DNA from: an uncultured Actinomycetota bacterium
GTDB taxonomy: Bacteria > Actinomycetota > UBA4738 > HRBIN12
Assembly (NCBI GenBank): GCA_963724415.1
Contig: CAVRUS010000011.1
Location: forward strand, 561 to 64,560
DNA length: 64,000 bases
Direction: 5' to 3'
Below are positions 3,390-64,000 of this stretch, piece by piece. The translations under genes and the position numbers were made by a program. The notes below the pieces were generated by a model. That model had not been told where the DNA came from and did not search any database. It saw nothing but the letters and a program-made list of their open reading frames with translations. Position 1 is the stretch's first letter. Each line of letters begins with the position of its first letter.

Positions 3390-3920
3390 ATGGCGCGCAC
3401 CAGGGTCCGCAAGCTGGCCCCTATCGTCATCGGGCTGCTGCTCACCGCCTGCTCCTCCGAGGCGTTCGAATCCTCGCGGCACGGGTACAGCCTGGAGGTG
3501 CCTTCAGGCTGGGAGGTCACGGAGTACCCCGGAACGTGGACGCAGCTCGAGGAGTTCTCGCCGGGGGCAGAGGTTCCGGGGGAGGACGTCGTCGCTCCGC
3601 CGGACCTGTCGTCGTTCCTCGTGAGCAACTCGATGGAGATCCCCTCCGACATGACGGCGGCCGAGTGGCAGGAAGCCTTCGATGCGCTCGTGGCGCCGGC
3701 GCTGACCGAGGAGTGCCCCGGTACGACGGCAAGCGACGTCGTCGCGGGCGAGCCGGCGGCGGCGGTGGAACAGCCGTGCGAAGGGTCGATCATCGTCGGG
3801 CGGCGTCTCACGCACGCAGGACGCGGGTACTACTTCACGATCCGGTTCCCGGCCGATGATGCCGCTGCGAGGGAGACGCTCGAGAGCGTGGTTCAGTCGA
3901 TCGAGTTCATCGACGACTGA
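3390..3920 (+). CDS. putative lipoprotein (LLLTACSS lipobox)
   Basis: ATG at 3390 is preceded by GAGGAGGG. N-terminal MARTRVRKLAPIVIGLLLTACSSE. Its 3' end overlaps the convergent cyclase gene by 14 nt. Confidence 0.65.
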   Translation: MARTRVRKLAPIVIGLLLTACSSEAFESSRHGYSLEVPSGWEVTEYPGTWTQLEEFSPGAEVPGEDVVAPPDLSSFLVSNSMEIPSDMTAAEWQEAFDALVAPALTEECPGTTASDVVAGEPAAAVEQPCEGSIIVGRRLTHAGRGYYFTIRFPADDAAARETLESVVQSIEFIDD

Positions 3921-6900: not shown

Positions 6901-7410
6901 GCCGGTGAGGACGCCTGCGCGGGCACGGAGGTCGGCGCCGACGTCCGCGCCGAGGGTCTCGACGGCCTCGAGCAGCTCGAGCGCCGCCCGGACCGCACGC
7001 TCGGCGTCGTCCTCGTGCGCCGCCGGCGTCCCCCAGACCGCCATCACGGCGTCGCCGATGAACTTCTCGACGAGACCGCCGTAGCGCTCGATCGTCTCCC
7101 GGGCCGTCTCGAAGTAGCGGGACAGCAGGTCGCGGACCTCCTCGGGGTCACGGCCCTCCGCGAGGTTCGTCGAGCCGACGAGGTCGGCGAACAGGACCGA
7201 CACGAGACGGCGCTCGGTCGACGGCGTGGCGGCGGCCGGGACGGGCGGGGCCGCGCTCGTGCCGATCGTCGCCCCGCACTCCCCGCAGAACTTGCTGTCG
7301 GGAGCGTTGGGCGCGCTGCATGCGTCGCAGACGATCACGAGCGCCGAGCCGCATTCCTTACAGAACTTGCGGCCCGGCTCGTTCTCGGTCCCGCAGTTCG
7401 AACAGTTCAC
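3907..7410 (-). CDS. double zinc-ribbon / class III adenylate-guanylate cyclase / STAND (AAA) NTPase / TPR protein, paralog 1
   Basis: 1167 aa. N-terminal CxxC pairs (CSNCG..CKECG, CDACS..CGECG). Cyclase motifs VSVLFADLVGST and KFIGDAVMAVWG. P-loop GIAGVGKS. A long TPR-like helical C-terminal region. The last 60 aa or so are low-complexity. Confidence 0.85.
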   Translation of the reverse strand: MNCSNCGTENEPGRKFCKECGSALVIVCDACSAPNAPDSKFCGECGATIGTSAAPPVPAAATPSTERRLVSVLFADLVGSTNLAEGRDPEEVRDLLSRYFETARETIERYGGLVEKFIGDAVMAVWGTPAAHEDDAERAVRAALELLEAVETLGADVGADLRARAGVLTGEAAATVGATSQGIVAGDLVNTASRLQSMAEPGTVLVGETTVRATGRAIAFEKFGDLTLKGKETVVPAWRALRVLGELRGAGRGEAIEPPFVGRAEDLRSIKELVRATGAERKARLVSVTGIAGVGKSRLAWELLKWIDGFVEVLYWHRGRCPSYGDGVTFWALGEMVRMRAGIAETDDPATSRRKLSASVAEFVSDPDERRWIEPRLAHLLGLDPAPHGDREELFAAWRAFFERIAEQGTIVMVFEDLQWADPGLLDFIESILEWSKSHPILIVTMARPELADKRPNWGSGQRSFTAMHLERLPDPVIAELVEGFVHGMPPESVERIVARAEGMPLYAVETVRMLVDRGALEARDDAYVLVGEVGTLDTIPETLHALIAARLDVLPPEDRALVQDASVVGMTFTVEGLAAVAGSGREQVEARLRELVRREFLGLEVDARSPERGQYSFLQALIKEVAYSTLSKPDRRSRHLAAAHHLESLSDDELAGVVATHYVEAYRASPEGPEADALAARARDWLSQAAQRALSLGSPEQAIGYAEIALDVTPKGPERASLLTTAASAATLAAWFDRAEALYEEAIALHEELGDHAAAGRATADLYEVLRPQDRRAEAAERMERALEALGDADEDVAARLCAKLAQALRATGAVEAAIPLAERALTIAERLHLTDVMIEALDAKGGAYFNLGRHREATILGRGELELADEIGSLRYRSWALMAIGIGSLEEDPAGALRAILESAETARRAGDRAGEMHGLTNAAEGAIELGSWEEAEEALHRLEGRELGTENELAREFCEILLQAHRGDVAAARRRLDGIAPRIEAAEQLAMHTWFGRESALVHLLGGDPAPAFEAAIEAVELEPSGVNAHYAAREAARAAVWLRDPDRLRRALEAMAPLRGRWIDAVRRTAEAGLAALEGRREDALAGYERALGEWRALDAPPGSGVLRRRHGPRPAGRGAHDRGPRREHGVPHGDRRRVAPRADRVRPTVTGPRRGHLTVSRR

Positions 7411-20404: not shown

Positions 20405-21949
20405 TCAGACGCCGTGGTAGGAGTCCCAGAGCTGGCCCAGGTACCAGGAGCCGAACGTGGCGAGCGTGGCGGCCCGCTCGGCGATCGAGTCCGTGTTCGT
20501 CGCGTGCATGCTCGACACGAGCTTCGCGACGTCCCCGACGTCCAGCCGGAGCACCCCGGCGCCTGCGACCGGCCCGCTCGCGTCGTCGCCTTCGTGCAGG
20601 GTGGCCGGGATCGTCGTGATGTCACCCCATATGTCGGCGCCGGGGTCGTCGCGCAGATGCGCTCGCCCGGCGACGCGGTAGCTCCGCCCGCCGTGCTCGA
20701 AGGCGAGCTCGTACACCACCTCCTTCGCGTCGGGCTCGTCCGACGGCGCGAACAGGTTGAAGAGCCCGTCGACGCACGGGAGTCGGTCGCCGAAGGCGGG
20801 GAACGAGAGGTCTCCCGTCAGGGAGCCTGCGTGCTCGGGGTCCGACACGAACCGCTCGACGTCGTCGACGTCGATGTTGGCCCTGAGCGCGAGGGTCGTC
20901 CCGTCGGCCTGGCCCTTCGCCGCCCCCTCGGCGGGATCGGTCGCACCCAGCGCGAAAGGCCCGGTCATCGTCTCGCTGAACATCACACCACGACGCCCAC
21001 CGGCCATCCGAGTGACATCGGGGGTCAGCGCGAGTCCCTCCTCGGCCGCCGATGCCAGGTAGCGCTTCGCATCGCGGTACCCCATCGAGATCAGTGCGTC
21101 GGCGTCGATCCGCCCCTCGTAGAGATCGGGGTCGAGGGGGAGCGGCGAAGCGGGTTTGACCACGTGGAGCCGGATCGGCCGTGTCTGCCCGAAGGCTCCC
21201 TCCCCTTTCTCGATGCGACCGTTCAGCTCGCGGATACGATCCAGGTCCTCGAACAGCGCGCCGTTGGCCGACAGCTCGATCATGTGCACGTACTGGCGGA
21301 ACGGGCCCGGGTGATACTCCGGCTCGTTGCCGATGCACCAGACGAGCCAGATCTCCTCGGCTCCCCGGCGCACGGCTTCCCAGAGGTTGGCGTCGCGGAT
21401 CCAGACCGAATCGACGTAGGTGGCGTCGCCGCGCCGCACCGGGGGCATGAAGATCGGCAGTGAGATCCCGGCGACCAGCAGGTCGAGGTCGACGTCGGTG
21501 TGGTCGATCGCTTCGTTCGTCTTGGTCGTGTAGTTGCACACGTTGAACGTGCCCTGGATGCCCCGCGCGGCTCGGATCGAGTCGACGTCGACTCCCAGGT
21601 CGGGGAAGACGTGCCCCACGATGCCGTCGGCGTCGCCGAGGGCCATCAGATGCGAGGCCCGGACGTAGTCGGCGAGGGGCGCGAACGACACGAAGTCGCG
21701 GACGTTGAGCCGCCGCCACCGATCGCACATCTCGGGCGGTGTGAGCCCCGAGAGCAGCATCGCGAGGTTGATCGTCCCGCCCGAAGTCCCGTCGGCGTGG
21801 AAGAACACGAGCCCAGCGTCGACCAGCGCCCGGATCGCGCCTGCCTGGTAGGCGACCCGCATCCCGCCACCCGCCAGGACGAGGGACCGCCTCGGCCCCG
21901 TGTCGCCCTCTGGAGCGGCCCCGCTGGGCACGTGCGGCTCGGCGGTCAT
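20405..21949 (-). CDS. patatin-like phospholipase with a C-terminal domain homologous to the GMC protein C-terminus
   Basis: LVLAGGGMRVAYQAGAIRAL is the oxyanion motif and DGTSGGTINLAML is GxSxG. The C-terminal 200 aa align with the C-terminus of 17964-20395. Start taken at MTAEPH; the upstream RG-rich part is rejected. Confidence 0.8.
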   Translation of the reverse strand: MTAEPHVPSGAAPEGDTGPRRSLVLAGGGMRVAYQAGAIRALVDAGLVFFHADGTSGGTINLAMLLSGLTPPEMCDRWRRLNVRDFVSFAPLADYVRASHLMALGDADGIVGHVFPDLGVDVDSIRAARGIQGTFNVCNYTTKTNEAIDHTDVDLDLLVAGISLPIFMPPVRRGDATYVDSVWIRDANLWEAVRRGAEEIWLVWCIGNEPEYHPGPFRQYVHMIELSANGALFEDLDRIRELNGRIEKGEGAFGQTRPIRLHVVKPASPLPLDPDLYEGRIDADALISMGYRDAKRYLASAAEEGLALTPDVTRMAGGRRGVMFSETMTGPFALGATDPAEGAAKGQADGTTLALRANIDVDDVERFVSDPEHAGSLTGDLSFPAFGDRLPCVDGLFNLFAPSDEPDAKEVVYELAFEHGGRSYRVAGRAHLRDDPGADIWGDITTIPATLHEGDDASGPVAGAGVLRLDVGDVAKLVSSMHATNTDSIAERAATLATFGSWYLGQLWDSYHGV

Positions 21950-22016
21950 CGGACCGGAGTCGAGGAGAGCCCTTCTGGGGGCCTCGAGCGCGCCGGCCGG
22001 GTCGCGAGGGAGATGT

Positions 22017-22430
22017 TCACCGTCGGATGCGCCTCCAGAACGCGAGTCCGAGCGCCCCGGACAGGAGGTCGAACCCCGCCACCAGCAGCGCCACCCCGGA
22101 GAACACGCCGCGAGCGACGCCGATCCCGACCGCCGCCGAGGCACCCACCTTCTGGAGGGCGGCCCAGAAGACGACGATGGGGTGCTCCGCCCGGTCCAGG
22201 AGCGCGTGGATCAGCATGCCGCCGAACAGCACCATGAACATGCCGACCGTGGCGAACAGCTGTCGGGTCGCCTCCGTGTTCTCGACCGAGAGCCGGTCCA
22301 GCACGAAGCCGGGAGCCACGATCTGGGTGAGGCCGGAGGCCACCGTGATCGCCGCGATCGCGAGGAGAACGAGACGGAGCGGGTCTGCGACCAGGCGCCG
22401 CCGCACGCCAACCGCCGCCGGATCGCTCAT
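22017..22430 (-). CDS. small membrane protein
   Basis: 137 aa with 3-4 TM helices. Its start overlaps the stop of the upstream gene in a TGATG arrangement. Confidence 0.55.
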   Translation of the reverse strand: MSDPAAVGVRRRLVADPLRLVLLAIAAITVASGLTQIVAPGFVLDRLSVENTEATRQLFATVGMFMVLFGGMLIHALLDRAEHPIVVFWAALQKVGASAAVGIGVARGVFSGVALLVAGFDLLSGALGLAFWRRIRR

Positions 22431-27284: not shown

Positions 27285-30200
27285 CTAGCGCGTCGCCATC
27301 TCGAGTTGCTCGGCCACGCCGGCGGAGACGACGTTCCCCTTCTGCGCGTACAGCTCCCGCGCTCGGCGGAGAGCGTCCATCCGTTCGGCGGAGTCTCCGA
27401 CTGCGGACAACACCGTGGCGAGGTCCATGAGACTGTCCGCGCACATGTTCGTGTCGTCGGTCTCTTCGGCGAGCTCGACCGCCGCTCGCGCCAGGGTTGC
27501 CGCCTCGGCATGCTCGCCGCGCGCGGCAAGGACCTTCGCCTTGGCGCTCCGCCACAAGACCTGGGTCGCGAGATCGTCGTCGGCCCCGATCTCCTCCGCG
27601 ATGCGACAGAACTCCTCGGCCTCCTCCAACCGTCCCTGGGCGCAGATCGCATGCGCCAGAAGCGCTGCCGCGGTGGCCTGGTACCCGAGGTCCCCGAGCC
27701 GGGTGACCTCGTCGTACCCAGCTCGGAGGGCTCGCTCCGCGGCCGCCGGATCTCCCGCGAGCGTCTCGATGAACCCCTCGGCCTCGGAAGCGAAGGACGC
27801 CCGCATCCTGAGCCCGTGGTCCTCGAGGATCTCGAGGCTCTTGCGGACGAGTCGTCGAGCTTCATCGATCCGACCCTGCATCGCGTTCAGTGCCGCCATG
27901 CTCCGGATCGCGCCCGCCTCCGCGGTCGGATTCCCCTTCGCGAGCTCCATGATCCTCTCGCATCGAGTCATGACGTCGGCCACCGGCGCCGGCCCGAACA
28001 GGCCGGTACCCGCGTACATGCGAAGGCTTTCGGCCTCCTCATATTCGGCGCCGGCCTTCCGCGCGTGCTCGATCGCCTGTTCGAGCGCGCGGTCGGCCTT
28101 CGCGTAGGTGCTCTGCGTGAAGTGCACGTCTCCGAGCAGGCGGTACGCCCTCGCGAGCCCGAGGTCGTCACCCAGCTCCTCGAGGACGGGGATCACGCTC
28201 CCCAGCGTCTCCAACGCCTCCTCGGATCGATGCTCGGGATCCGTGAACTCCCTCAGTAGGAGCGAGACGATCTGGACGTGGGCCTCGAGGCCACGGTCTC
28301 CGTTCGCTCGCGCGCGATCGACGGCGTCGCGCAGCATCGCCTCGGCACGGGCGATCTCTCCCGTCTCCATCAGCGACTGCCCGAACTCCGGGACCAGCGC
28401 GAGCCGCCGCGGGTCATCGAGCGGGAGGAGGTCGTAGCTGCGCCCCAGAAGGGTGGCGGCCGCCTGGATGTCGCCCCTCGCCAGCGCTCGTCGGCCGACC
28501 GAGGCGAGCGTCGCGCTGGCGCGGCCGATCAAGGCGTCCGTGTCATCATCGGGTTGACCGAGCTCCATGCGGTAGCGAGCCGCTCTCTCGAGGTGATAGG
28601 CGAGGATCTCCTCGTTCTCTCCGATCCGGTCGCCGGTGGTCCGCTCGAGCCAGCCGGCGAAACGCAGGTGGAGGTCGGCCCGCAGCTCCTTGGGGGCCTG
28701 GCGGTACGCCCCCTCCTGGATGAGGAGGTGATGGAAGCCGAACGCATCCTCGCCGAACGAGGCGGAGTGGTCGGGGGCGATCAGCTCACGCCGAACGAGG
28801 CTCTGCAGGATCGGACCCACGCGCGAACGCAATCCATCGGGGACCAGATCGACAACGGCTGCCCACGAGAAGATCTTGCCGATCACGGCGCCGCCGTGGA
28901 TCACGGCTCGCTCTTCCGCCGTGAGTCGATCCAGGCGAGCCCCGACGAGGGCCTGGATCGTCGGCGGGACCGTCGCGAGCGCGGCCTCCCTCGTCGACCC
29001 CCCGGCGTCCGCACCCTGGGCTTCGAGCACGCCGTCGTCCCGGAGCATCTTGACCATCTCCACGACGAACAGCGGATTGCCGCTTCCCACCTCGGAGATC
29101 CGTCCGCGGAGCCCGGCGCTCAGATCGCCGCCCTGGAGGAGCTCGTCGATCAACGTCCCGATCTCATCCGCTGCCAGCGGCTGCAGGTGAAGGATCGCCG
29201 CGTTCGGCAGGTGGGCCGCCCATCCGGATCGTTCCTCCAGCACATCGCTCCGGGCGAGGCAGAGGACGAGGATCGGGGCGTCCCGGCACGAGCGCAGGAG
29301 GTACTCGAGAAGATCGAGGAGCGCGGGTTCGGCCCACTGCAGGTCGTCCAAGATCACGACGAGCGGATGTTCCCGGGCTACCTGCTCCAGCAGCCGGCGG
29401 ATCGCCCAGAAGGTCTCCTGCATCCCCACGGTGGCGTCCGCCAGACCGATCGCTGCTGCGACCCGGTCGAACAGCAATCCTGATTCCTCGGCGCCGCGCA
29501 AGAGCGCCTGCAGCTTGGAGCGGGCGATCTCGAGGGGATCGTCGAGATCGATCCCCGCGAGCTCACGGACCGCCTCGGCCACCGGCCAGAACGTGATGCC
29601 GTCACCGTAGGGGAGGCATCGTCCCTCGATCGTGATCGCTTCGCCTTCGATGCCGGTGACGAATTCGCTCGCGAGCCGTGACTTGCCGGCCCCAGCGGTT
29701 CCCGTGACCGTGAGGAGCCGGCAGGCTCGCTGCGCGATAGCCAGGTCGAACGCCTCGCGCATCCGGCCGATCTCATCAGCACGACCCACCAGGGGAGGAT
29801 CTGCTCGCTTCGGCCGCTCGCCGAACGCGGTGGTGTCGAGCAGTCGGTAGGCCGTTACCGGCAGGCGCTTCCCTTTGAGGACCAGGGAGGCTCCTTCATC
29901 GACCGAGACGGAATCGCGAACCAAATCGTAGGTCTCCCGCCCGAGGAGGATCTCCCCAGGGGCCGCGGCTTGCTGGAGTCGAGCGGCCAGGTTCACGGCT
30001 CCTCCGACGACGGCTGGGCCCGAAGCGGAGCCAGAGACGAAAACCTCTCCGGTGCTCACGCCGGTTCGCGTGGTGATCGAGACACCGGCCGTGCGCTCCA
30101 GGTCGTCGTTGAGCGAAGTCAGTGCGCTCCGCATGTCGGCCGCCGCACGCGTCGCCCGAAGGGCATCGTCCTCGTGCATCCGCGGGATGCCGAAGACCGC

Positions 30201-30473
30201 CATCACCGCGTCGCCGATGTACTTCTCGACCGTGCCACCGTGCCGTTCGAGCACGCGGCGCATCTCCTCGAAGAACCTGGTCATCACCCGCCGAACCGTC
30301 TCGGGGTCGAGCTCGTCGCCCATCGGGGTGGAGCCGACCACGTCGCAGAAGACGATCGAAACGGTCTTCCTCGCCATGCCGAGCGCGGGCACGGCCGTCA
30401 GCGGGGTGGCACATGACATACAGAAGCGGGCGGGTTCCGGGTTGTCCCGGCCACACGATCCACAGATCGGCAT
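27285..30473 (-). CDS. zinc-ribbon / class III cyclase / STAND NTPase / TPR protein, paralog 2
   Basis: 1062 aa. CGSCG..CMSC ribbon, VSIVFCDVVGST and KYIGDAVMAVFG cyclase motifs, P-loop GTAGAGKS, and a TPR C-terminus. Confidence 0.9.
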   Translation of the reverse strand: MPICGSCGRDNPEPARFCMSCATPLTAVPALGMARKTVSIVFCDVVGSTPMGDELDPETVRRVMTRFFEEMRRVLERHGGTVEKYIGDAVMAVFGIPRMHEDDALRATRAAADMRSALTSLNDDLERTAGVSITTRTGVSTGEVFVSGSASGPAVVGGAVNLAARLQQAAAPGEILLGRETYDLVRDSVSVDEGASLVLKGKRLPVTAYRLLDTTAFGERPKRADPPLVGRADEIGRMREAFDLAIAQRACRLLTVTGTAGAGKSRLASEFVTGIEGEAITIEGRCLPYGDGITFWPVAEAVRELAGIDLDDPLEIARSKLQALLRGAEESGLLFDRVAAAIGLADATVGMQETFWAIRRLLEQVAREHPLVVILDDLQWAEPALLDLLEYLLRSCRDAPILVLCLARSDVLEERSGWAAHLPNAAILHLQPLAADEIGTLIDELLQGGDLSAGLRGRISEVGSGNPLFVVEMVKMLRDDGVLEAQGADAGGSTREAALATVPPTIQALVGARLDRLTAEERAVIHGGAVIGKIFSWAAVVDLVPDGLRSRVGPILQSLVRRELIAPDHSASFGEDAFGFHHLLIQEGAYRQAPKELRADLHLRFAGWLERTTGDRIGENEEILAYHLERAARYRMELGQPDDDTDALIGRASATLASVGRRALARGDIQAAATLLGRSYDLLPLDDPRRLALVPEFGQSLMETGEIARAEAMLRDAVDRARANGDRGLEAHVQIVSLLLREFTDPEHRSEEALETLGSVIPVLEELGDDLGLARAYRLLGDVHFTQSTYAKADRALEQAIEHARKAGAEYEEAESLRMYAGTGLFGPAPVADVMTRCERIMELAKGNPTAEAGAIRSMAALNAMQGRIDEARRLVRKSLEILEDHGLRMRASFASEAEGFIETLAGDPAAAERALRAGYDEVTRLGDLGYQATAAALLAHAICAQGRLEEAEEFCRIAEEIGADDDLATQVLWRSAKAKVLAARGEHAEAATLARAAVELAEETDDTNMCADSLMDLATVLSAVGDSAERMDALRRARELYAQKGNVVSAGVAEQLEMATR

Positions 30474-32577: not shown

Positions 32578-33355
32578 TCAGCGAGCGATCGCTCCCGCCG
32601 CTCGCACGATCGCGGGGAGGACCTCGCCGATCGGAGCTCGGATCGTCACGTCGGCTCCGTCGTCGAGCGGGGTCTCGCCCTGGTTCACGATGACCAACCG
32701 CGCGCCGCGCCGGTGGGCATCGACGGCGAGCGTCGCGGCCGGCTGCACGGTGAGCGTCGTCCCGATCGCGAGGAACAGGTCACACGCGCTCGAGGCCACG
32801 ACCGCCGTCTCGAGCACGAGCGGATCGAGGCGCTCGCCGAACGCCACCGTCGCCGACTTCTGGATGCCGCCGCACTCGGTGCACGCAGGGTCGGGCTCGC
32901 CGGCGCGGACGCGATCGAGCTGCTCCTGCATCGGCGTGCGGCGGTCGCACGACAGGCACTTCGCCTGGTGGATCGTCCCGTGCAGCTCGAGCACCCGCTC
33001 GGAGCCGGCCGCCTGGTGGAGCCCGTCGATGTTCTGGGTCATCAGCGCGAGCAGCGTGCCGCGCCGCTCCAGCTCGGCGAGCGCACGATGCCCGTCGTTC
33101 GGCTGCGCCGTCCACGCCGGGTGGCGCATCCGCTCCTGCCACGCCTGGACGCGGACCTGTGGATCGCGCACGTAGTCCTCGATGTTCACGAGCTTCATCC
33201 GCTCGGGGTTCGTGGTCCACACGCCGTTCGGCCCTCGGAAGTCGGGGATGCCCGACTCGGTGCTGATGCCCGGCCCCGGTCAGGACGACGATCCGCTCGG
33301 ATGTGCGGATATCGCCGGCAACTCGTTCGATCGAACGTTCGGGCTCGTCGCTCAC
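32578..33355 (-). pseudogene. Sir2-family NAD-dependent deacylase with a frameshift in a G/C run near 33270
   Basis: The C-terminal catalytic and Zn-binding part (QNIDGLH, CLSCDRR, CTECGG) is in ORF 32578-33222. The N-terminal GAGISTESGIPDFRGPNG is only readable after a 1-nt shift at ..accggggccgggcatc.. Confidence 0.7.
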
Positions 33356-33431
33356 GCAGTGGAGCCTAGGCCGGTTCACGAGCGAGTTGTCGGATCTGAT
33401 TGGATATAACGACTCTGTTATCATCGCGCAG

Positions 33432-33737
33432 ATGAGAGCAGGCACGATTCTTCGGGAGGCTCGGCATCGAGCCGGGCTCACGCAGCGTGAGCTCGCGCGC
33501 AGGGCGGGTGTGCCCCAGCCGGCGGTCTCCCGGATCGAGCGCAACCACGTCTCCCCGCGACTCGAGACGCTCGACGTCCTGCTCCGCGGATGTGGCCTCG
33601 CCCTCGACCTGGTTGAGCGACCCGGCCTCGGCGTCGATCGGACGTTGATCCAGGAGCGACTGCGCCTCTCGCCGATCGAACGCGCGCGGCTGACCGCCCG
33701 GGAATGGAACCGGACGCGCGGCCTCTCGTCGGGGTGA
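33432..33737 (+). CDS. XRE-family HTH transcriptional regulator
   Basis: LTQRELARRAGVPQPAVSRIERN is the HTH. The upstream region is AT-richer (ggatataacgactctgttatcat). Confidence 0.75.
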   Translation: MRAGTILREARHRAGLTQRELARRAGVPQPAVSRIERNHVSPRLETLDVLLRGCGLALDLVERPGLGVDRTLIQERLRLSPIERARLTAREWNRTRGLSSG

Positions 33738-33809
33738 CACCCTCTGAGCGAACCTGCCTTCGACCCCATCGCCGGTCTCCGGACGCTCGTCGAGCACGGC
33801 GTCCGCTTC

Positions 33810-34235
33810 GTGTTGATCGGCGGCTACGCGGCTGCGCTCCGCGGCTCGCCGATGATGACGGGCGACGTCGACATCTGCCCGGCTCGCGATCGCGGCAACC
33901 TCGATCGGATGGCCGAAGCTCTGCAAAGCCTGCACGCCCGCCTCCGTGGAGCACCGGCCGATGTCCCGTTCTTGCTCGACGGCCGGACACTCGAGGCGGG
34001 TGACCACTTCACGTTCTCGACCGACGCGGGTCCCATGGACTGCCTGAGCACGCCGGCCGGGACCGATGGGTTCGTGGACCTCGATGCGTCGGCCACCGAC
34101 GAGGACCTCGACGGGCTCGTCGTCCGCGTGGCCTCCCTCGACGACCTGATCCGCATGAAGCGCGCTGCCGACCGGCCACAGGACCGGATCGCGGTCGAGT
34201 GGCTCTCTGCGCTCCGCGACGAGCTCGAAAGCTGA
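33810..34235 (+). CDS. nucleotidyltransferase-fold protein (AbiEii-like / MNT-like)
   Basis: LIGGYAAALRGSPMMTGDVDI fits the GG..A....GS....T.D.D pattern. It starts 70 nt after the XRE stop, and the ORF is open back to 33738 so a non-ATG start is possible. Confidence 0.55.
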   Translation: MLIGGYAAALRGSPMMTGDVDICPARDRGNLDRMAEALQSLHARLRGAPADVPFLLDGRTLEAGDHFTFSTDAGPMDCLSTPAGTDGFVDLDASATDEDLDGLVVRVASLDDLIRMKRAADRPQDRIAVEWLSALRDELES

Positions 34236-43523: not shown

Positions 43524-44123
43524 ATGGCTCTCTCGACGCGGTTCGACGAAGCACTGGTCTACGCCCACGAGCTCCATCGCGAGCAGACCAGGAAGGGCGA
43601 CGACGTCCCGTTCGTCTCCCATCTCCTCGGGGTGTCATCGCTGGTGCTCGAGGAAGGCGGGTCCGAGGATCAGGCGATCGCCGCGCTCCTCCACGACGCG
43701 GCTGAAGATCAGGGCGGCCGGTCCACGCTCGAGGAGATCAGGTCACGGTTCGGGGACGACGTCGCGAGGATCGTCGAGGCGTGCACCGACTCGTTCGAGG
43801 ATCCGTTGCCCCCGTGGCGTTCCCGGAAGGAGGCCTACGTCGAGCGACTGCCTCATCAGTCGGCTGATGCGCTCCTCGTTTCGCTCGCCGACAAGGTCTA
43901 CAACGCGGGAACGCTCGCTCTGGCCCTCGCCGAGCACGGCCCCGCGTACCTCGACGGGCTGATGGGCGGGCGGGAGGGGAGGCTCTGGTACTACAGAGCG
44001 CTCACCGACACGTTCGTGAGGATCCCCGGCTTCGACAGTCGATTGATCGATGTTCTTCGCCGGATCGTCGAGGAGGTCGAGTCGCTGGCATCTCGAGAGA
44101 CCGCCAGCGAACCCTCTCCGTAA
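43524..44123 (+). CDS. HD domain phosphohydrolase
   Basis: HDAAED and H..LGV motifs. Start at MALSTRFDEA. Confidence 0.65.
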   Translation: MALSTRFDEALVYAHELHREQTRKGDDVPFVSHLLGVSSLVLEEGGSEDQAIAALLHDAAEDQGGRSTLEEIRSRFGDDVARIVEACTDSFEDPLPPWRSRKEAYVERLPHQSADALLVSLADKVYNAGTLALALAEHGPAYLDGLMGGREGRLWYYRALTDTFVRIPGFDSRLIDVLRRIVEEVESLASRETASEPSP

Positions 44124-44139
44124 CGCGCGGGCGCACGAT

Positions 44140-45030
44140 TCAGTGAAGGTCACGCACCATCGCTCGGAGATGCTCGAGCTTCTCGGGGTTGCTGACGGCG
44201 TGCATGGTCTGCACCTGACCGTCAACGATGTCGAGCGAGACGGCCGCGATGGCCACGTCGTCGGCATCGAGGAACAGCGCGCCGGGCTGGCCGTTGATCT
44301 CGGCGCGACGCATCGTGACGACGCCCAGGCGCCTGCCCTGTGTGGCACCCGCCTGCAGGAGCCGGGCAACCTTCTCGCGACCGTGGACCGGCTTCGGGAA
44401 GGCGAACCCCTTGCCACCGCCATCGGCGTACGCGACAACGTCGGCCGCAAGCATGCTCACGAGGTCCTCGACTTCCCCCTCCGCCGCCGCCGCGAAGAAT
44501 CGCTGCGCGAGCTCGTCCCGTTCCGCCTTCGACGCATCGAACCGCGGCTTCCCGGCCTGCACCTGCCGGCGCGCGCGGACCGCGATCTGGCGGCAGTTCT
44601 CCTCGCTCTTGCCCACCACCGATGCGATCTCGTCGTAGTCGTACTCGAAGACCTCCCGCAGCAGGAAGACGGCACGCTCGACGGGCGTGAGGCTCTCGAG
44701 GAGCACCAAGAACCCCATCGAGAGCGAATCGGCCGTCTCCGCGTGACGCTCGGCATCCGAGGTCTCGTCCGTGAGCAGTGGCTCGGGGAGCCACGTGCCC
44801 ACGTAGGACTCGCGGCGTACCCGCGCGGACCGCAGGTGGTCGATGCACAGGCGGGTCGCGACGGCCGACAGGTAGGACTTCGGCGACTGGACCTGCGTGC
44901 CGGCGGCGGTCTCGCGGTGGTAGCGCAGGAACGCCTCTTGCACGATGTCCTCAGCGTCGGTGGCGCTACCGAGCATCCGGTAGGCGATCGAGAACAGCAG
45001 CGGCCGCAGCTCGGCGACAGGGTCGTCCAT
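44140..45030 (-). CDS. ECF41-type RNA polymerase sigma factor with SnoaL-like C-terminal extension
   Basis: Sigma2 region DIVQEAFLRY and sigma4 region. The ECF41 signature YVGTWLPEP is followed by a C-terminal extension of about 120 aa. Start at MDDPVAEL. Confidence 0.85.
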   Translation of the reverse strand: MDDPVAELRPLLFSIAYRMLGSATDAEDIVQEAFLRYHRETAAGTQVQSPKSYLSAVATRLCIDHLRSARVRRESYVGTWLPEPLLTDETSDAERHAETADSLSMGFLVLLESLTPVERAVFLLREVFEYDYDEIASVVGKSEENCRQIAVRARRQVQAGKPRFDASKAERDELAQRFFAAAAEGEVEDLVSMLAADVVAYADGGGKGFAFPKPVHGREKVARLLQAGATQGRRLGVVTMRRAEINGQPGALFLDADDVAIAAVSLDIVDGQVQTMHAVSNPEKLEHLRAMVRDLH

Positions 45031-45071
45031 GCGCGCCTCCAAAGCGGATCGTCGTCTCCATCCTCCCACGG

Positions 45072-45098
45072 GACGAAGGAGGCCCTCGATCCGTGACA
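45072..45098 (-). promoter_or_regulatory. candidate ECF41-type promoter (TGTCACG-N16-CGTC) upstream of the sigma factor gene
   Basis: Minus-strand reading is GTTGTCACGG atcgagggcctcctt CGTC. The -10 element lies about 42 nt upstream of ATG 45030. Confidence 0.5.
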
Positions 45099-45130
45099 AC
45101 GGCTGCGTGACTCTCCTCGGAGCCGGACCG

Positions 45131-45158
45131 TGTCACGGGCGCGTCGCCTCCTCTCGTC
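45131..45158 (+). promoter_or_regulatory. candidate ECF41-type promoter (TGTCACG-N17-CGTC) upstream of divergent gene 45185
   Basis: TGTCACG at 45131-45137 and CGTC at 45155-45158, followed by SD GAGAGGAG and ATG 45185. Confidence 0.4.
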
Positions 45159-45184
45159 TCGTGTGATGAGAGGAGTGATGCGAG

Positions 45185-45379
45185 ATGCAGACCGATCAGC
45201 GAACGGACCAAGACTGGGTGGGGCCGGATCTCCCGAGCCTCAGCGGTGTCGTGTTCGGCTCGATCCTGTTCGTGACGGGCATGATGCTCATGCTGACGGT
45301 GATCGGGGCACCCTTCGGGATCCTGCTCTTCGCGGCAGGGCTCGGGTGGATGACGACGCCGAAGGACCGCCGGCGATGA
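45185..45379 (+). CDS. small membrane protein (64 aa)
   Basis: Strong SD. Two hydrophobic helices. Its stop overlaps the next ATG in an ATGA arrangement. Confidence 0.55.
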   Translation: MQTDQRTDQDWVGPDLPSLSGVVFGSILFVTGMMLMLTVIGAPFGILLFAAGLGWMTTPKDRRR

Positions 45380-45604
45380 CGATCCGGGCGACGACGGCGC
45401 GGCGGATCCTGCGGAGGCAGGGGATGCCTCCGCGGGAGATCCGCGCCGTCTTGGCTGCGGACGATCCGCTCGTCGGCGGCGACTCCTGGAGCTCCATCGC
45501 GAGCGGCTGGGGGAGTGGCTCGAGGAGCAGCGCAGGCTGGTGTCGAGCATCGAACGCTCCCGACCAAGGCGATGACGATCCTCATGTCGCGTCGGAACTC
45601 GCAT
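45377..45604 (+). CDS. hypothetical protein (75 aa)
   Basis: ATG overlaps the stop of 45185-45379. No recognisable domain. Confidence 0.3.
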
Positions 45605-45640
45605 TGAAGTTCTGAGGCACCAGATGCCGATGGGTATCGG

Positions 45641-46120
45641 GTGCTGACCGAGGAGGATCTCGTCGAGACCGCCCTGCTCCGGTACGCCCAGAAGCGGGCG
45701 ACCGAGTGGGGCGCGGATCGGTTCGCGGCGGAGTTCCGGCGCCGTGACCTCGAGGAACGGTGGGTCGAGGCGGCCCGAACGAACACGACGCCGTACACAC
45801 CCCTCGAAGTCACGGAACCGGCCGCACTCTCCGGGCCCGTCGACGCCTCCGCGCAGGACCTGGTCGTCGAGACCGCCACACGCGACGAGTGGCGCCTCAC
45901 GAGACCGGCCCACGTCCGGCACGCGTCGGTGCCTCGGCCGCCCGCCGATGCACCGCGAGACCGATCGCGGCCGACTCGGCCGCCGGAAGCGGAAGCAGGT
46001 CACGAAGGACGCCGCCTGGACGATCCCGGCAGCGGAGGTCGCGCGGATGTCGCCCGCGGCGCGTCGGCTCTACGGCCTCGAGGACCCCGTCACGCGCTGA
46101 CGGTTCGGTTGGTCGGCTAG
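45641..46120 (+). CDS. hypothetical protein
   Basis: 159-aa ORF; the C-terminal half is low-complexity. Confidence 0.3.
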   Translation: MLTEEDLVETALLRYAQKRATEWGADRFAAEFRRRDLEERWVEAARTNTTPYTPLEVTEPAALSGPVDASAQDLVVETATRDEWRLTRPAHVRHASVPRPPADAPRDRSRPTRPPEAEAGHEGRRLDDPGSGGRADVARGASALRPRGPRHALTVRLVG

Positions 46121-46130
46121 CCTCGAACGG

Positions 46131-46454
46131 ATGCCAGGGAACAGGAGCGCCCGGGTCGCGCTCGTGTGCGGCATCGTGGGACTGGCCACGCAGTTGGTCA
46201 GCGCCATCCCGCTCGTGGTGTTCGCGCGGCGGAACGGTGATCTGCTCCCCGGGTTCGTGGTGCTGATGGTGGGGATCGTCCTCGGCGCCATCGCCGTCGT
46301 CGCCGGAGTCCTCGGGCGGGGGAGTGCCGAGCGCGGGACGCCGCAAGAGCGTCGGGCCACCGTCGGCATCTGGCTCGGCGGGTCCGCGATCCTGGCGAGC
46401 GTGCTCCTCTCGATCCTGCTCGTCTCGGCGGCGGTCTCGACGTTCGAGTTCTGA
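46131..46454 (+). CDS. membrane protein (107 aa)
   Basis: Three TM helices. Confidence 0.5.
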   Translation: MPGNRSARVALVCGIVGLATQLVSAIPLVVFARRNGDLLPGFVVLMVGIVLGAIAVVAGVLGRGSAERGTPQERRATVGIWLGGSAILASVLLSILLVSAAVSTFEF

Positions 46455-46675
46455 ACCCGGTCGTGGCGTCGGGACGAAGACGTACACTGGAACAGACGCG
46501 ATCCCCATCCATCGGAGGGGAGAAGCAGGAGCTTCGGAGATCGCATCCGCCGATCCCGTTCCATCGCTGGTCCAGCGACGCTTGATATCCCGAGCGATCC
46601 TTGCTCTCGATCTGGCTCAGTTGGCCCGGACGGTTGCGGGTCCACGCACGACAACGAACGAAGGAGCACATACCT

Positions 46676-46981
46676 ATGCAGCATGTTCGTATCGCAACGT
46701 ATGACATCAAGGACGGCACCTTCGAGGAGCTCTCCCGCACCGCCCGTGAGGGCATGCTCCGCACCTTCCAGGACCAGGCCGGCTTCATCCGGTACGGGGT
46801 CGCCGACCTCGGCGACCGCAAGCTCGTCTCGCTGAGCCTCTGGGAGACCCGCAAGGACGCCGACGCATCGGTCCCGGTGGCCGAGCGCTGGGTGCGCGAG
46901 CACCTCGCGAACAAGGTGGAGCTGAAGTCGACCCAGATCGGGGACATGGCCTTCTTCGAGGGCGCGCCCGCGAAGGTCTGA
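46676..46981 (+). CDS. ABM (antibiotic biosynthesis monooxygenase)-like small protein
   Basis: SD AAGGAG lies 8 nt before ATG 46676. MQHVRIATYDIK....LWETRKDADAS is the typical ABM pattern. Confidence 0.55.
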   Translation: MQHVRIATYDIKDGTFEELSRTAREGMLRTFQDQAGFIRYGVADLGDRKLVSLSLWETRKDADASVPVAERWVREHLANKVELKSTQIGDMAFFEGAPAKV

Positions 46982-47282
46982 CCGATACCACGCGGCCGCA
47001 TCGCGCTACTGCACGAGCGCGGCCGTTGGGGATGGGGGGTCCACTCCGGTGGGCCCCCTCTTCCACGGAGGGAGCGAGGGCACCATGACGATCCTGCAGG
47101 ATCCGGTCCGCCCGTTCGATCCCTCGATGCCTGCGCCGTCGCCTCGACCGGGCGATGAGGTCCTGACCGCGATGCGACCCCGAGGTTCGAGGGGGAAGAC
47201 CTCGTTCGAGCTCGCATCACGCGGCGGGTACGTGACGGCACGTCACGACGGGGCGGCGAACGGCGAGAGCTCGATCTAGCGC

Positions 47283-49478
47283 TCAGGGAGTGCGGATCAG
47301 GTGGTTCGCGACGTCGGCTTCGAAGTCGTCGAGGCTGAGCTCGGCGATGCGATCGACATCCACGGTCTGCAGGCTGAACGAGAACGTCGTCCCGACGCCG
47401 AGCTGAGAGTCCACCCAGATCCGTCCGGACATCGCCTCGACGAGCGTGCGCGCGATGTAGAGCCCGAGTCCCGTGCCCGGCCGGCGCGCCGCGCCGTTCT
47501 GCACACGGTAGAAGCGGTCGAACACCAACTCGCAGTGCTCCGGCGCGATGCCTTCGCCCTGGTCGCTCACGGAGATCGTCACCGAACCCTCGGCCGTCCG
47601 AGTGCCGACCGTGATCGGCAGGCCCGCCGGCGTGTACTTGTCCGCGTTCGTGAGCAGGTTCAACACGATCTGCTCCACGCGGAACGGATCGGCGAACACG
47701 ATCGTCGCCCGGTCCAGGTCACTGAGCACGACCGGGCGATCCGAGTGCTGCTCCCGGAACTCCGTGACGACGCGGGTGAGCACGTGGCCGAGCGGCATCG
47801 GCTGGAGGTCCACCACGAGGCCGCCGGCCTCGATCAGCGAGACGTCGAGCATGTCGTTCACGACGCGCTCGAGACGTTGCGCCTGGCGCAGCATGATCCG
47901 GTAGTACTCCTGCAGCTTCTCGGGCGAATCGTCGACGGTGCCCTCGACGAGGCTCGTGAGGAACCCGCGGAGCGGCGTGAGCGGGGAGCGCAGCTCGTGG
48001 GAGACCATCGAGACGAAGTCGCGCTTGATCTGCTCGGCCTTCATCTCCTCGCCGGCGTCGCGCACCACGACGATCTGCTGGGGCGGCGCGTCCTCGTCGT
48101 CGCGGATCGTGCTGGTCCGGAGGCGCAGCTCCTTCGTCGCGCCGTCCTTCGTGGTCGCCGTGGTGTCGCCGAGCCGGCCGTTGCCGTCGTCCTCCGCGGC
48201 GAGCACGGTGATCATGCCGAGCCCGAGGAGCTCCTCGCAGCGCTTGCCGATCGCGTCGTCCTCCGAGTAGCCCACGATCGCGTGCATCGCCGGGTTCCAC
48301 GACCTGATCAAGCCGTCCGGGTCAACCGTGAAGACGCCGTCGGAGGTGTGCGAGACGATCTCCGAGAGTCGGGCGCGCTCGAGGGTCTTGCCGTACAGGC
48401 GGTGGTTCCACAGGCGAGCGGCGATCTGGCTCGCGAAGCCGTCGACGAGGACACGCTCCGTCGCCGTGAGGGCCTCCTCCCGGTAGACCGCGAGCACCCC
48501 ACGGACGTCCTCGCCGTCGCCGACGAGGGCGATCTGGGGGGCGACCCCGCTGTGCACCGCGACGAACGCGTCCAGCGGATCGACGCCGGCGTCGTCGATC
48601 GTGAGGTGGCGGATGCCATTCGAGGTGTGCACGGCGACGGCGGTGTCGTCCACGACGACGAGCTCCACGCGGTCGGCCGGGAGCAGCTTCTCGAGCAGCC
48701 CGAGGAAGTCGCCGAAGCGCTCGGTGGTGGCCATCGGTGCGGAGAGCACGCGGCCCGCCTCGTAGAGGCTCCGCATCTGTTCGCGCTCCTTGACGCCTTC
48801 GACCCACCGTTGGTACGTGACGTAGGCGAGCCCGACCGGCGCGATCATCAGGATCAGCGCGACCGGCTCCGCGGCCCAGACCAACGCCGCGAGGATGCCC
48901 AGGGCGACGTTGCCGAGCCAGTGCAAGACGTTGATCGCGAGCGGGAGACGGAACACGTCGAGGAACCGGGTGCGCTCGACCATCGACACGACCAGCATGA
49001 TCGCGGTGGCGTTCACGGCGAAGGCGACGTACATCGCGGCCAGGACGGCGGCCCAACGCGCCGGGTCGGCCGGTCCCGAACCCCACCCGCCGAGGACGGC
49101 GAACGTGAGCTCCGCGAGGGTGAGCCCGATCAGGAACTGCGAGACGTTGTAGGTGATCTTGAACGGCTTCCAGCGGTTCAGGCCCTCGCCCACGACGACG
49201 CCGAGGAGCACGGCGACCGTCAGGACGCCGGGCGACACGAGGAGGAGCGCGCCGGCCCACACGCCGTCGGTGAGCGCGAAGTTCACGGTTTCGGTGCCGC
49301 GCCGCAGCGGGATCGAGTACCGCTCGGCCGCGATCGTGAGTCCCGCGATCACCGCGACGGCGAGGAGGTCCTGCATGTCCCAGCGCGTGATCTCGGGCAC
49401 GCGGATCGCGAGGCAGCCGATCGCGAGCAACGCCGCGCCCGTGATCAGGAGCTTCACCGAACGAGGAAGTGCCTTCAT
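47283..49478 (-). CDS. sensor histidine kinase (polytopic membrane N-domain, PAS, HisKA, HATPase)
   Basis: H-box FVSMVSHELRSPLTPLRGF and N/G boxes in the C-terminus. Six or more TM helices at the N-terminus. SD GAGGGGA. Confidence 0.9.
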   Translation of the reverse strand: MKALPRSVKLLITGAALLAIGCLAIRVPEITRWDMQDLLAVAVIAGLTIAAERYSIPLRRGTETVNFALTDGVWAGALLLVSPGVLTVAVLLGVVVGEGLNRWKPFKITYNVSQFLIGLTLAELTFAVLGGWGSGPADPARWAAVLAAMYVAFAVNATAIMLVVSMVERTRFLDVFRLPLAINVLHWLGNVALGILAALVWAAEPVALILMIAPVGLAYVTYQRWVEGVKEREQMRSLYEAGRVLSAPMATTERFGDFLGLLEKLLPADRVELVVVDDTAVAVHTSNGIRHLTIDDAGVDPLDAFVAVHSGVAPQIALVGDGEDVRGVLAVYREEALTATERVLVDGFASQIAARLWNHRLYGKTLERARLSEIVSHTSDGVFTVDPDGLIRSWNPAMHAIVGYSEDDAIGKRCEELLGLGMITVLAAEDDGNGRLGDTTATTKDGATKELRLRTSTIRDDEDAPPQQIVVVRDAGEEMKAEQIKRDFVSMVSHELRSPLTPLRGFLTSLVEGTVDDSPEKLQEYYRIMLRQAQRLERVVNDMLDVSLIEAGGLVVDLQPMPLGHVLTRVVTEFREQHSDRPVVLSDLDRATIVFADPFRVEQIVLNLLTNADKYTPAGLPITVGTRTAEGSVTISVSDQGEGIAPEHCELVFDRFYRVQNGAARRPGTGLGLYIARTLVEAMSGRIWVDSQLGVGTTFSFSLQTVDVDRIAELSLDDFEADVANHLIRTP

Positions 49479-61850: not shown

Positions 61851-64000
61851 GTGAAACGGTGCCCGAGCTGCGGGGAGGAGAACGCCGACCGGGCGCGGTT
61901 CTGCCAGCGTTGTGCGACGCCGCTCGAGGAGGCCGCGCCCCCGCCCGGTGACGTCCGGAAGGTCGTCACGATCGTGTTCGCCGACGTGACCGGTTCCACG
62001 GCGCTCGGCGAGCGCCTCGATCCCGAGGCCCTCCGACGCGTGATGGGTCGGTACTTCGACGAGATGGCCGCTGCGATCGAGCGCCACGGCGGGACGGTCG
62101 AGAAGTTCATCGGCGACGCCGTGATGGCCGTGTTCGGGATCCCGCGGCTCCACGAGGACGACGCCGTCCGGGCCGTGCGCGCGGCGATCGGGATGCGCGA
62201 GGCGCTCGAGGCGCTGAACCTGGATCTGGAGCGCGAGCACGGCGAGGGACTGGCCGCGCGGATCGGCGTGAACACGGGCGAGGTCGTGGCCGGCGACCCG
62301 TCGGCCGGGCAGCGCCTCGTCACCGGCGACGCGGTGAACGTCGCCGCGCGGTTGGAACAGGCGGCCGCGCCCGGCGAGATCCTGCTCGGCGATCCCACCT
62401 ACCGTCTGGTCAAGGACGCCGTGGAGGTCGAGCCCGTGGACGCCCTCGCCCTGAAGGGGAAGCAGCAGCCGGTGCCGGCGTTCCGGCTGATCGCCGTGGC
62501 GGCCGACACCGCGGGACACGAGCGCCACCTCGATTCGCCGATGGTGGGCCGCGCGAAGGAGCTCTCCCTGCTGGAGCACGCCCTCGAGCGCGCGGTCACC
62601 GACCGCACCTCGCACCTCTTCACCCTGATGGGTCCGGCCGGGGTCGGGAAGTCCCGGCTCGTGGCCGAGTTCCTCGGCGGATCGGTGAGCGAGGCGACGG
62701 TCCTGCGCGGCCGCTGCCTCTCCTACGGCGAGGGCATCACGTTCTTCCCGCTCGCCGACGTGGTCCACCAGGCGGCGGGGATCCTGGACAGCGACCTCCC
62801 GGCGGTCGCTCGCTCGAAGCTCGACGACGTCCTCGGCGACGCGCCCGATCGGGATCGCGTCGCGGGACTGGTGGCCGGTCTGTTCGGCTGGGCGGATCCC
62901 GGTGCGACCGAGGACGCGTTCTGGGCGGTCCGCAAGCTCCTCGAACACCTCGCACGCGATCGCCCGCTGGTGGTCGTGTTCGACGACATCCATTGGGGAG
63001 AGCCGACGTTCCTCGACCTGATCGAACACCTCGCGGACTGGACGCGGGATGCCGCGGTCCTGTTGCTGTGCATCGCGAGGCCCGAGCTCCTCGAGGTTCG
63101 CCCCGGTTGGGGCGGCGGCAAGATGAACGCGACCTCGATCCTGCTCGAGCCGCTCGCCGGCGACGATGCGTCGCAGCTCGTCGACAACCTCCTCGGGCGG
63201 GCCGACATCCCGCAGGTCGCGCGCGACCGGATCCTCGAGGCGGCCGAGGGCAACCCGCTCTTCGTCGAGGAGATGCTCGCGATGCTGATCGACGACGGCC
63301 TCCTCCGATTCGAGGACGGTGCGTGGCGATCCGTCGAGGACCTGGCGAACGTGACCGTGCCGCCGACGATCCACCTGCTCCTGGCCGCGAGGCTCGACCG
63401 GCTCGACGCCGATGAGCGCGCGGTGATCGAGCGCGGCTCGGTGGAGGGCAAGGTGTTCCACTCCGGCGCCGTCGCGACGCTCAGCCAGGAGACGGCCCGC
63501 CCGAACGTTCGGTCCCGGCTGCTGGCACTGGCCCGCAAGGAGCTGATCCGGCCGGACCGGCCCGAGTTCGCCGGCGAGGACGCCTTCCGGTTCCGGCATC
63601 TGCTGATCCGTGATGCCGCGTATCAGGCGATGCCGAAGGAGCAGCGAGCCGATCTGCACGAGCGCTTCGCGGGCTGGCTGGCGGAGGCCGCGCGCGAGCG
63701 GATGGCCGAGTACGAGGAGATCCTCGGATACCACCTCGAGCAGGCCTACCGGTACCGGGAGGAGCTCGGCGCTGCCGACGAGGCCGCGCGGGGGATCGCG
63801 ACGCGCGCGGCCGAGTATCTGTTCGCCTCGGCGGTCCGCGCGGACGAGCGCAACGACCTGAACGCGGCGAAGGCGTTCCTGGAACGCAGCGTCGCGCTCT
63901 CGGACGGAGGTCTCCAGGGGCGATCGCTGCTGCTGCTGGCCGAGGTCGTCCAGGAGCTGGGCGAGTACACGGCGGCACACGAGATCGTCCTGCGCGCCCG
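61851..64000 (+). CDS. zinc-ribbon / class III cyclase / STAND NTPase / TPR protein, paralog 4 (3'-partial at window end)
   Basis: GTG start. CPSCG..CQRC ribbon, VTIVFADVTGST and KFIGDAVMAVFG cyclase motifs, P-loop GPAGVGKS, VFDDIHWGEPTFLDLIEH. It continues beyond position 64000. Confidence 0.85.
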   Translation, partial: MKRCPSCGEENADRARFCQRCATPLEEAAPPPGDVRKVVTIVFADVTGSTALGERLDPEALRRVMGRYFDEMAAAIERHGGTVEKFIGDAVMAVFGIPRLHEDDAVRAVRAAIGMREALEALNLDLEREHGEGLAARIGVNTGEVVAGDPSAGQRLVTGDAVNVAARLEQAAAPGEILLGDPTYRLVKDAVEVEPVDALALKGKQQPVPAFRLIAVAADTAGHERHLDSPMVGRAKELSLLEHALERAVTDRTSHLFTLMGPAGVGKSRLVAEFLGGSVSEATVLRGRCLSYGEGITFFPLADVVHQAAGILDSDLPAVARSKLDDVLGDAPDRDRVAGLVAGLFGWADPGATEDAFWAVRKLLEHLARDRPLVVVFDDIHWGEPTFLDLIEHLADWTRDAAVLLLCIARPELLEVRPGWGGGKMNATSILLEPLAGDDASQLVDNLLGRADIPQVARDRILEAAEGNPLFVEEMLAMLIDDGLLRFEDGAWRSVEDLANVTVPPTIHLLLAARLDRLDADERAVIERGSVEGKVFHSGAVATLSQETARPNVRSRLLALARKELIRPDRPEFAGEDAFRFRHLLIRDAAYQAMPKEQRADLHERFAGWLAEAARERMAEYEEILGYHLEQAYRYREELGAADEAARGIATRAAEYLFASAVRADERNDLNAAKAFLERSVALSDGGLQGRSLLLLAEVVQELGEYTAAHEIVLRA

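Follow-up and report, generated by a model that had tools for sequence, protein, structure and literature searches.

Sigma factors of the ECF41 group are among the most widespread of all ECF sigma factors. To our knowledge, the only established targets of ECF41 are single neighboring enzyme genes.

The promoter recognized by ECF41 has been defined as TGTCACA, a spacer of 16 ± 1 bp, and CGTC (Wecke et al. 2012, PMC3426412). The motif is found upstream of neighboring genes for a carboxymuconolactone decarboxylase, an oxidoreductase, or an epimerase (the COE genes) and often upstream of the gene encoding the sigma factor itself (PMC3426412). Amongst divergent ECF/COE loci (n=55), it precedes the sigma gene in 36 and the partner gene in 41 (PMC3426412). 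The genomic contexts of ECF41 are not uniform: about 30% are 'orphans', 6% are 'ungrouped', with hypothetical proteins nearby, and a few have cupin partners; hypothetical-protein partners carrying the motif have already been noted (PMC3426412). The sequence WLPEP was named as characteristic of the group, and actinobacteria often carry several ECF41 paralogs (PMC3426412). RpoE9 of Sinorhizobium meliloti, an ECF41 sigma factor, has a single target (PMC6180224), and a transcription start mapped in that organism lies 9 nt past the motif (PMC3616915). In place of an anti-sigma factor, regulation is exerted by a domain fused to the C-terminus of the sigma factor (PMC3426412, PMC5766207; reviewed in PMC8999054).

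The locus considered here lies within a stretch of 64 kb (called the window below) from an uncultured member of the Actinomycetota. It probably constitutes an ECF41 (SigJ-type) module, in which the sigma factor drives two promoters placed back to back, one serving its own gene and the other a two-gene operon (Table 1).

Table 1. Features of the ECF41-type locus, in window coordinates
Feature	Coordinates	Strand	Description
ECF41-type sigma gene, 296 aa	44140..45030	-	sigma-2, WLPEP linker, sigma-4, and a SnoaL_2-like C-terminal extension of ~120 aa
Sigma-side promoter, predicted	45072..45098	-	-35 TGTCACG 45098-45092, N16, -10 CGTC 45075-45072
Partner-operon promoter, predicted	45131..45158	+	-35 TGTCACG 45131-45137, N17, -10 CGTC 45155-45158
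Small membrane protein, 64 aa	45185..45379	+	two predicted membrane helices; GAGGAG ribosome-binding site
Second ORF	45376..45575	+	ATGA overlap with membrane gene (45376-45379); frameshifted; small three-helix protein

The sigma factor was filed as ECF41-type, in keeping with the original prediction, because it exceeds the cut-offs of two NCBIfam models, TIGR02957 (SigX4; 358.8 bits against a cut-off of 323, covering model positions 5-280 of 281) and NF007214 (SigJ; 327.9 bits against 271), because its best match amongst solved structures is SigJ of Mycobacterium tuberculosis (PDB 5xe7; E = 3e-43, residues 7-285), and because its translation contains the linker YVGTWLPEP, with the WLPEP signature. 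The related model TIGR02960 (SigX5) gave 96 bits, far under its cut-off of 265. Pfam finds Sigma70_r2 at residues 6-70 and Sigma70_r4_2 at residues 108-156 and no further sigma region, leaving about 140 residues C-terminal to sigma-4. That these form a SnoaL-like extension is borne out by the full-length models and by the alignment with 5xe7, which takes in the SnoaL_2 domain and extends as far as NPEKL (NPDKF in SigJ), but not by Pfam SnoaL_2 taken alone, which falls below threshold (22.4 bits versus 27). The ATG at 45030 is preceded by GGAGG, and relatives use the same start. In two related loci (L001 at 3977-4003 and L083 at 3841-3870), 12 nt spanning the sigma gene's ribosome-binding site and its start codon are duplicated in tandem (GGAGGCACGCATG), resulting in two in-frame ATG starts; the window has one copy. 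The neighboring genes (an HD-domain gene and those encoding the 64-aa protein and the second ORF) gave no Pfam or NCBIfam match to an anti-sigma domain, though one of them may encode an anti-sigma factor of a novel type.

Just 154 bp (45031-45184) separate the sigma gene from the divergent membrane-protein gene, and within them, reading of the sequence and a pattern search both find the two motifs that had been predicted, TGTCACG-N16-CGTC on the sigma strand and TGTCACG-N17-CGTC on the opposite strand. Both agree with the published consensus, TGTCACA-n16(±1)-CGTC (PMC3426412). The spacer of the second, which had been considered off-consensus, falls at 17 nt inside the published tolerance of 16 ± 1. 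Position 7 of both boxes is G, where the consensus has A, and G is found at this position in the closest relatives as well. The minus-strand motif is 41 nt upstream of the sigma ATG and the plus-strand motif 26 nt upstream of the ATG of the membrane gene (45185). If, as we infer, the motifs are used as promoters by the sigma factor of the window, then transcription would start near 45062-45065 for the sigma gene and near 45165-45168 for the partner operon.

The intergenic region also contains an 11-nt inverted repeat (45148-45158 and 45165-45175; 91% complementary, with a 6-nt loop) that overlaps the -10 CGTC on the partner side as well as the membrane gene's ribosome-binding site, GAGGAG. L001 and L015 retain it in part, whereas L081 and L083 do not. 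For the repeat to fold into a hairpin in RNA, transcription would have to begin upstream of the start predicted above. An Rfam scan of the region gave nothing credible, and a simple scan for sigma-70 promoters and terminators from 43900 to 47400 found nothing, and so gave no 3' end for the operon. The operon had been said to extend to 45604, but no ORF ends there; the membrane gene stops at 45379 and the second ORF at 45575. Three genes further downstream (45641-46100, 46131-46454, and an ABM-domain gene at 46676-46981) were considered as members of the operon and rejected, as they are unlinked in L001, L015, and L081-L083. There is no COE gene within about 5 kb of the sigma gene; the ABM-domain gene is not of this kind and has no motif. 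Since about 30% of published ECF41 members likewise lack a COE neighbor, such a neighbor must be regarded as frequent rather than obligatory.

A scan of one genome per species provided 80 loci with relatives of the sigma factor, which were grouped by the neighbor of the sigma gene. The sigma factors of L001 and L015 are 94% identical to that of the window and those of L003, L004, and L005 69-73% identical, all from uncultured Actinomycetota. These five loci keep the back-to-back pair of motifs within intergenic regions that have otherwise diverged, and in each the gene behind the second motif encodes a homolog of the small two-helix protein. The pair is kept also in L012, L018, and L024, whose partner genes encode a hydrolase or an epimerase. 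On the sigma side, the motif with its N16 spacer is found in L001, L003-L005, L012, L015, L081-L083, L086, L089, and L090, while L084/L085 have TGTC as a variant -10 element and L002 has an N15 spacer. On the partner side, the five closest relatives (L001, L015, and L081-L083) all have an N16 spacer, as opposed to N17 in the window, and in every relative examined the motif precedes the small membrane gene. This includes L002, where the small gene has been relocated downstream of the sigma gene and has its own copy of the motif, TGTCACA-N15-CGTC. In L003, it is the second ORF that has moved downstream of the sigma gene.

The same association was seen from the side of the small protein, by inspecting the contigs of seven family members drawn from separate clusters, those of P0252, P0260, P0267, and P0272 being defined at 50% identity. 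In six (P0074, P0100, P0252, P0260, P0267, and P0272), the gene is divergent from one encoding an ECF-type sigma factor, and the motif pair lies between them (the -10 element at P0252 being TGTC), and the seventh, a contig of 965 bp (P0265), has the partner-side motif and part of the N-terminus of a sigma factor. Where the contig is long enough, the sigma factor is about 300 aa in length. An HMM of the small protein, run over the 80 species-level loci, found only L001-L005 and L015. The sigma factors linked to the protein constitute one clade in a rough neighbor joining tree, a clade of uncultured Actinomycetota. Nested within this clade are four loci (L006, L007, L008, and L010) that are without the small protein and keep TGTCACA-N15/16-TGTC; in L006 the partner is a cupredoxin lipoprotein, in L007 a DoxX protein, and in L010 the remnant of an epimerase. 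In more distant relatives, the same motif stands before epimerases (L013, L014, L018, and L024), with decarboxylases and oxidoreductases found further out. The claim that the partner is something other than the usual COE enzyme is thus upheld: it is a small membrane protein, and the pairing is conserved across the clade.

The TGTC form of the -10 element, found in L006, L007, L008, L010, and L084/L085 at a spacing of 15-16 nt, is missed by a search for CGTC alone. Partner genes are plastic within the sigma clade and tend towards envelope proteins. Genes for cupredoxin lipoproteins are present in L006 (~1680-1800) and, divergently oriented, in L002 (3357-3719), and a DoxX_2 membrane protein is encoded in L007 (~1000-1450), with a similar case in Streptomyces (L037). 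The small membrane gene is followed by a cupin gene in L004 (21-482) and by a gene for an MMPL-like transporter in L002 (5127-7502).

Might the motifs of the window be accidents of GC-rich DNA? Short motifs do turn up at random, and the window has four occurrences of the pattern TGTCAC-N16-18-CGTC, where shuffled sequence gives an expectation of 0.85. The two additional exact matches are intragenic and probably meaningless, one (20992-21017) lying within the gene at 20405-22144 and the other (33713-33739) antisense within a gene encoding an XRE-type helix-turn-helix protein. Within the 154-bp gap, however, roughly 0.002 matches are expected and two are seen. To score the entire window, a matrix was built from 55 instances of the motif near sigma homologs in distant ECF41 loci, leaving out the close clade, and spacers of 15-17 nt were allowed. 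Only two sites in 64 kb exceeded 14 bits, the sigma-side motif (20.0) and the partner-side motif (19.4), and 20 shuffled windows reached at most 17.6. Because instances entered the training set by matching the core exactly, there is circularity in the core columns; independent weight comes from those that flank them (e.g., the T before CGTC). The two other matches, each below 14 bits, were dropped as possible extra targets. Beyond the statistics, the position and spacing of the motif are kept in more than 10 orthologous loci, and on these conservation data an origin by chance appears extremely improbable, a reading that may be taken as already effectively refuted.

Or perhaps the two TGTCACG boxes are not promoter elements but half-sites at which a dimeric transcription factor binds a single inverted-repeat operator, CCGTGACA-N32-TGTCACGG. 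The boxes do make up an inverted repeat of 8 nt that is perfect, its arms 32 nt apart, and an adjacent gene encodes a small protein that may be MerR-like. Against this, the -35 boxes are anywhere from about 0 to 33 bp apart in orthologous loci, unfit for the fixed operator of a dimer, while the spacer between -35 and -10 elements remains at 16 nt (15 in L003), a combination that fits two promoters rather than one palindrome. Furthermore, each box keeps a CGTC or TGTC 15-17 nt downstream, loci that are not divergent carry a single box upstream of COE genes, and the candidate regulator has no recognizable helix-turn-helix. An operator of this sort is very unlikely.

The first gene of the putative operon is indeed the small-membrane-protein gene into which the opposite-strand motif had been said to read. 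Its product, with two predicted helices, has a hydrophilic N-terminus with a conserved WVGPDLPSL, a short GxPxG turn between the helices, and a basic C-terminus, and the family has invariant glycines at intervals of about seven residues. The glycines, the turn, and the basic C-terminus point to a hairpin whose two ends would be cytoplasmic. The gene is intact, and its GC3 value (0.86), together with the tendency of relatives to differ from it mainly at third codon positions, argues that it is a real coding gene. Homologs number 231 (569 by profile), all unnamed and without a Pfam domain. An HMM search of 1.84 billion representatives gave 31 matching clusters at 50% identity, nearly all of them small proteins of 36-119 aa; the weakest of the cluster matches listed is to a protein of 403 aa and is confined to a stretch of 12 residues. 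No named relative came to light in Pfam, in NCBIfam, in a search of 5.8 billion sequences, or in the HMM search. The best Pfam match, YccF, was set aside as below threshold (E = 0.009, 17 bits versus 27), as was DUF3040 (E = 0.002-0.03, also below the cut-off), which matched only the homologs in L003 and L004.

The second ORF is less straightforward. Alignment of the DNA with L083, L001, and L081 indicates that one T is missing from it between 45475 and 45476; the frame supported by homology stops at 45575. In L083 the ORF is intact and encodes 80 aa. Many of the 136 members of its family bear the JGI label 'MerR regulator', and several comparisons point in the same direction: a sub-threshold match to Pfam MerR-DNA-bind (E = 0.05, positions 9-64 of 65); a match to BrlR at E = 0.22 in a profile search of the PDB; and, for an AF2 model consisting of three helices (pLDDT 86.6), a top Foldseek match to the MerR-family protein NmlR with E = 2.5 and a TM score of 0.61. 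No match was found to the helix-turn-helix families PF00376 and PF13411. The protein may therefore resemble that part of a MerR protein made up of the latter half of the DNA-binding domain and the dimerization helix, minus the helix-turn-helix, which we offer as a lead only; since all of the MerR evidence is non-significant, the protein was not filed as a member of that family.

The missing T is not an isolated case. The next gene (45641-46100) undergoes a change of frame between 45955 and 46005 relative to an intact homolog of 156 aa in L083, and a GC3 frame plot shows both switches, two frameshifts within about 600 bp. At least two frameshifts so close together raise concern over the quality of the sequence or, alternatively, over whether the target operon has become a pseudogene. 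It may be, then, that the ECF41 promoters are real but that the module is partly decayed or rewired in this organism, so that the operon is weakly expressed or pseudogenized, or the sites are driven by a paralogous ECF41 sigma factor encoded elsewhere in the genome. The N17 spacer, where the five closest relatives have N16, would fit decay, as would the 1-nt deletion in the second ORF and the frameshift in the gene that follows, and for a paralog in control there is the frequent presence of several ECF41 sigma factors in actinobacteria (PMC3426412). But a spacer of 17 nt is within the published range of 16 ± 1, the membrane gene is intact with a coding pattern of substitution, and no ECF41 paralog exists inside the 64-kb window. 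Moreover, L015, taken from a metagenome bin like this one, contains many more indels than the window, and these resemble errors of long-read assembly; the indels of the window may be artifacts as well. The longer spacer and the frameshifts may thus represent either assembly errors or true decay of the target operon; the N17 promoter may be weaker than its N16 counterparts, or its extra base may itself be an assembly indel. Partial decay or rewiring is improbable, in our estimation.

Most of this architecture is shared with the ECF41/COE modules that have been studied (Ecf41-YdfG of Bacillus licheniformis, RSP_0607-RSP_0606 of Rhodobacter sphaeroides, and RpoE9-SMb20029 of S. meliloti): the domain structure of the sigma factor, the motif TGTCAC(A/G)-N16(±1)-CGTC, the lack of an anti-sigma gene, and a single neighboring target operon. 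Even the divergent layout with a motif on both sides is a described sub-type, and given the counts of Wecke et al. 2012, the back-to-back arrangement and predicted autoregulation are established features of the family. The difference lies in the partner, here a two-helix protein of 64 aa followed by a small helical protein. M. tuberculosis SigJ (5xe7; Goutam et al. 2017) is the closest structure, and in SigJ the aligned SnoaL_2 domain modulates promoter binding. However, the relationship is distant and the target different, and NF007214 is a subfamily model that implies no functional equivalence.

Sigma factors tightly linked to the gene for a small membrane protein, with predicted autoregulation, also bring to mind SigW-RsiW and RpoE-RseA. 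Unlike the membrane proteins of those systems, that of the window has only about 20 N-terminal residues predicted to lie in the cytoplasm and no anti-sigma domain, and its gene is divergent from the sigma gene rather than co-transcribed with it; ECF41 sigma factors are in any case regulated by their own C-terminal domain. A SnoaL-like C-terminal extension is found as well in ECF56, ECF294, ECF295, and ECF205 (e.g., SigG1-RsfG), from which the window sigma factor is set apart by its ECF41-type NCBIfam matches, its WLPEP, and the ECF41 motif.

How might the module work? By analogy with the members that have been studied, the SnoaL_2-like C-terminal domain would hold the sigma factor in check with no need of an anti-sigma factor. 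A cue, probably a small molecule, would provoke a conformational change through which the domain permits activity, and the active sigma factor, together with RNA polymerase, would recognize the two back-to-back promoters in the 154-bp region. From the leftward promoter would come transcription of the sigma gene itself, i.e., positive autoregulation, and from the rightward promoter transcription of the two-gene operon, giving rise to the 64-aa membrane hairpin and the translationally coupled small helical protein.

The hairpin might be more than a target. Its linkage to the sigma gene is strict in all loci examined and survives rearrangement, and the family apparently occurs only beside these sigma factors. 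Perhaps, then, it is a dedicated partner of the ECF41 clade on the membrane side, with the cytoplasmic WVGPDLPSL peptide, possibly along with the MerR-like protein, making contact with the sigma factor or its SnoaL-like domain. We consider this doubtful. If true, a sigma factor that is otherwise cytoplasmic and self-regulated would gain a link to the membrane.

Some other features of the window deserve mention. The XRE-type gene (~33420-33737, plus strand) in which the antisense chance match to the ECF41 motif sits is followed by a nucleotidyltransferase-like gene (33810-34235, plus strand), and the two resemble a toxin-antitoxin pair. Close by, a gene for a SIR2-family deacetylase (32578-33360, minus strand) seemingly lacks its N-terminal ~45 codons in frame, judging from its counterpart in L015 (2604-3284), which may be due to another indel. 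This gene lies less than 2 kb from the sigma locus in L015, L081, and L082 and 12 kb from it in the window. Finally, there are three large paralogous genes (3907-7410 and 27285-30473 on the minus strand and 61851-64000 on the plus strand), each of which begins with a zinc-ribbon-like CxxC...CxxC and continues with a segment like those of adenylate/guanylate cyclases (…IVFxDVxGST…); three such paralogs is an unusual density for 64 kb.

No description was found of a conserved clade in which a two-helix hairpin replaces the enzyme partner, the ECF Hub subgroup tables and the supplement to Casas-Pastor et al. 2021 lying outside the material covered. The gain is incremental, because both the architecture and the promoter logic were described in 2012. 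The new element, real though modest, is a coherent clade with a lineage-specific two-helix membrane protein in the place of the enzyme. Since close relatives have envelope proteins as partners (the cupredoxin lipoprotein and DoxX), the module in this lineage points to the cell envelope rather than to cytoplasmic detoxification. With two promoters, three small genes, and a natural variation between N16 and N17, it also offers a compact system in which to test promoter spacing and autoregulation. The clade broadens what a module of one sigma factor and one target can control.
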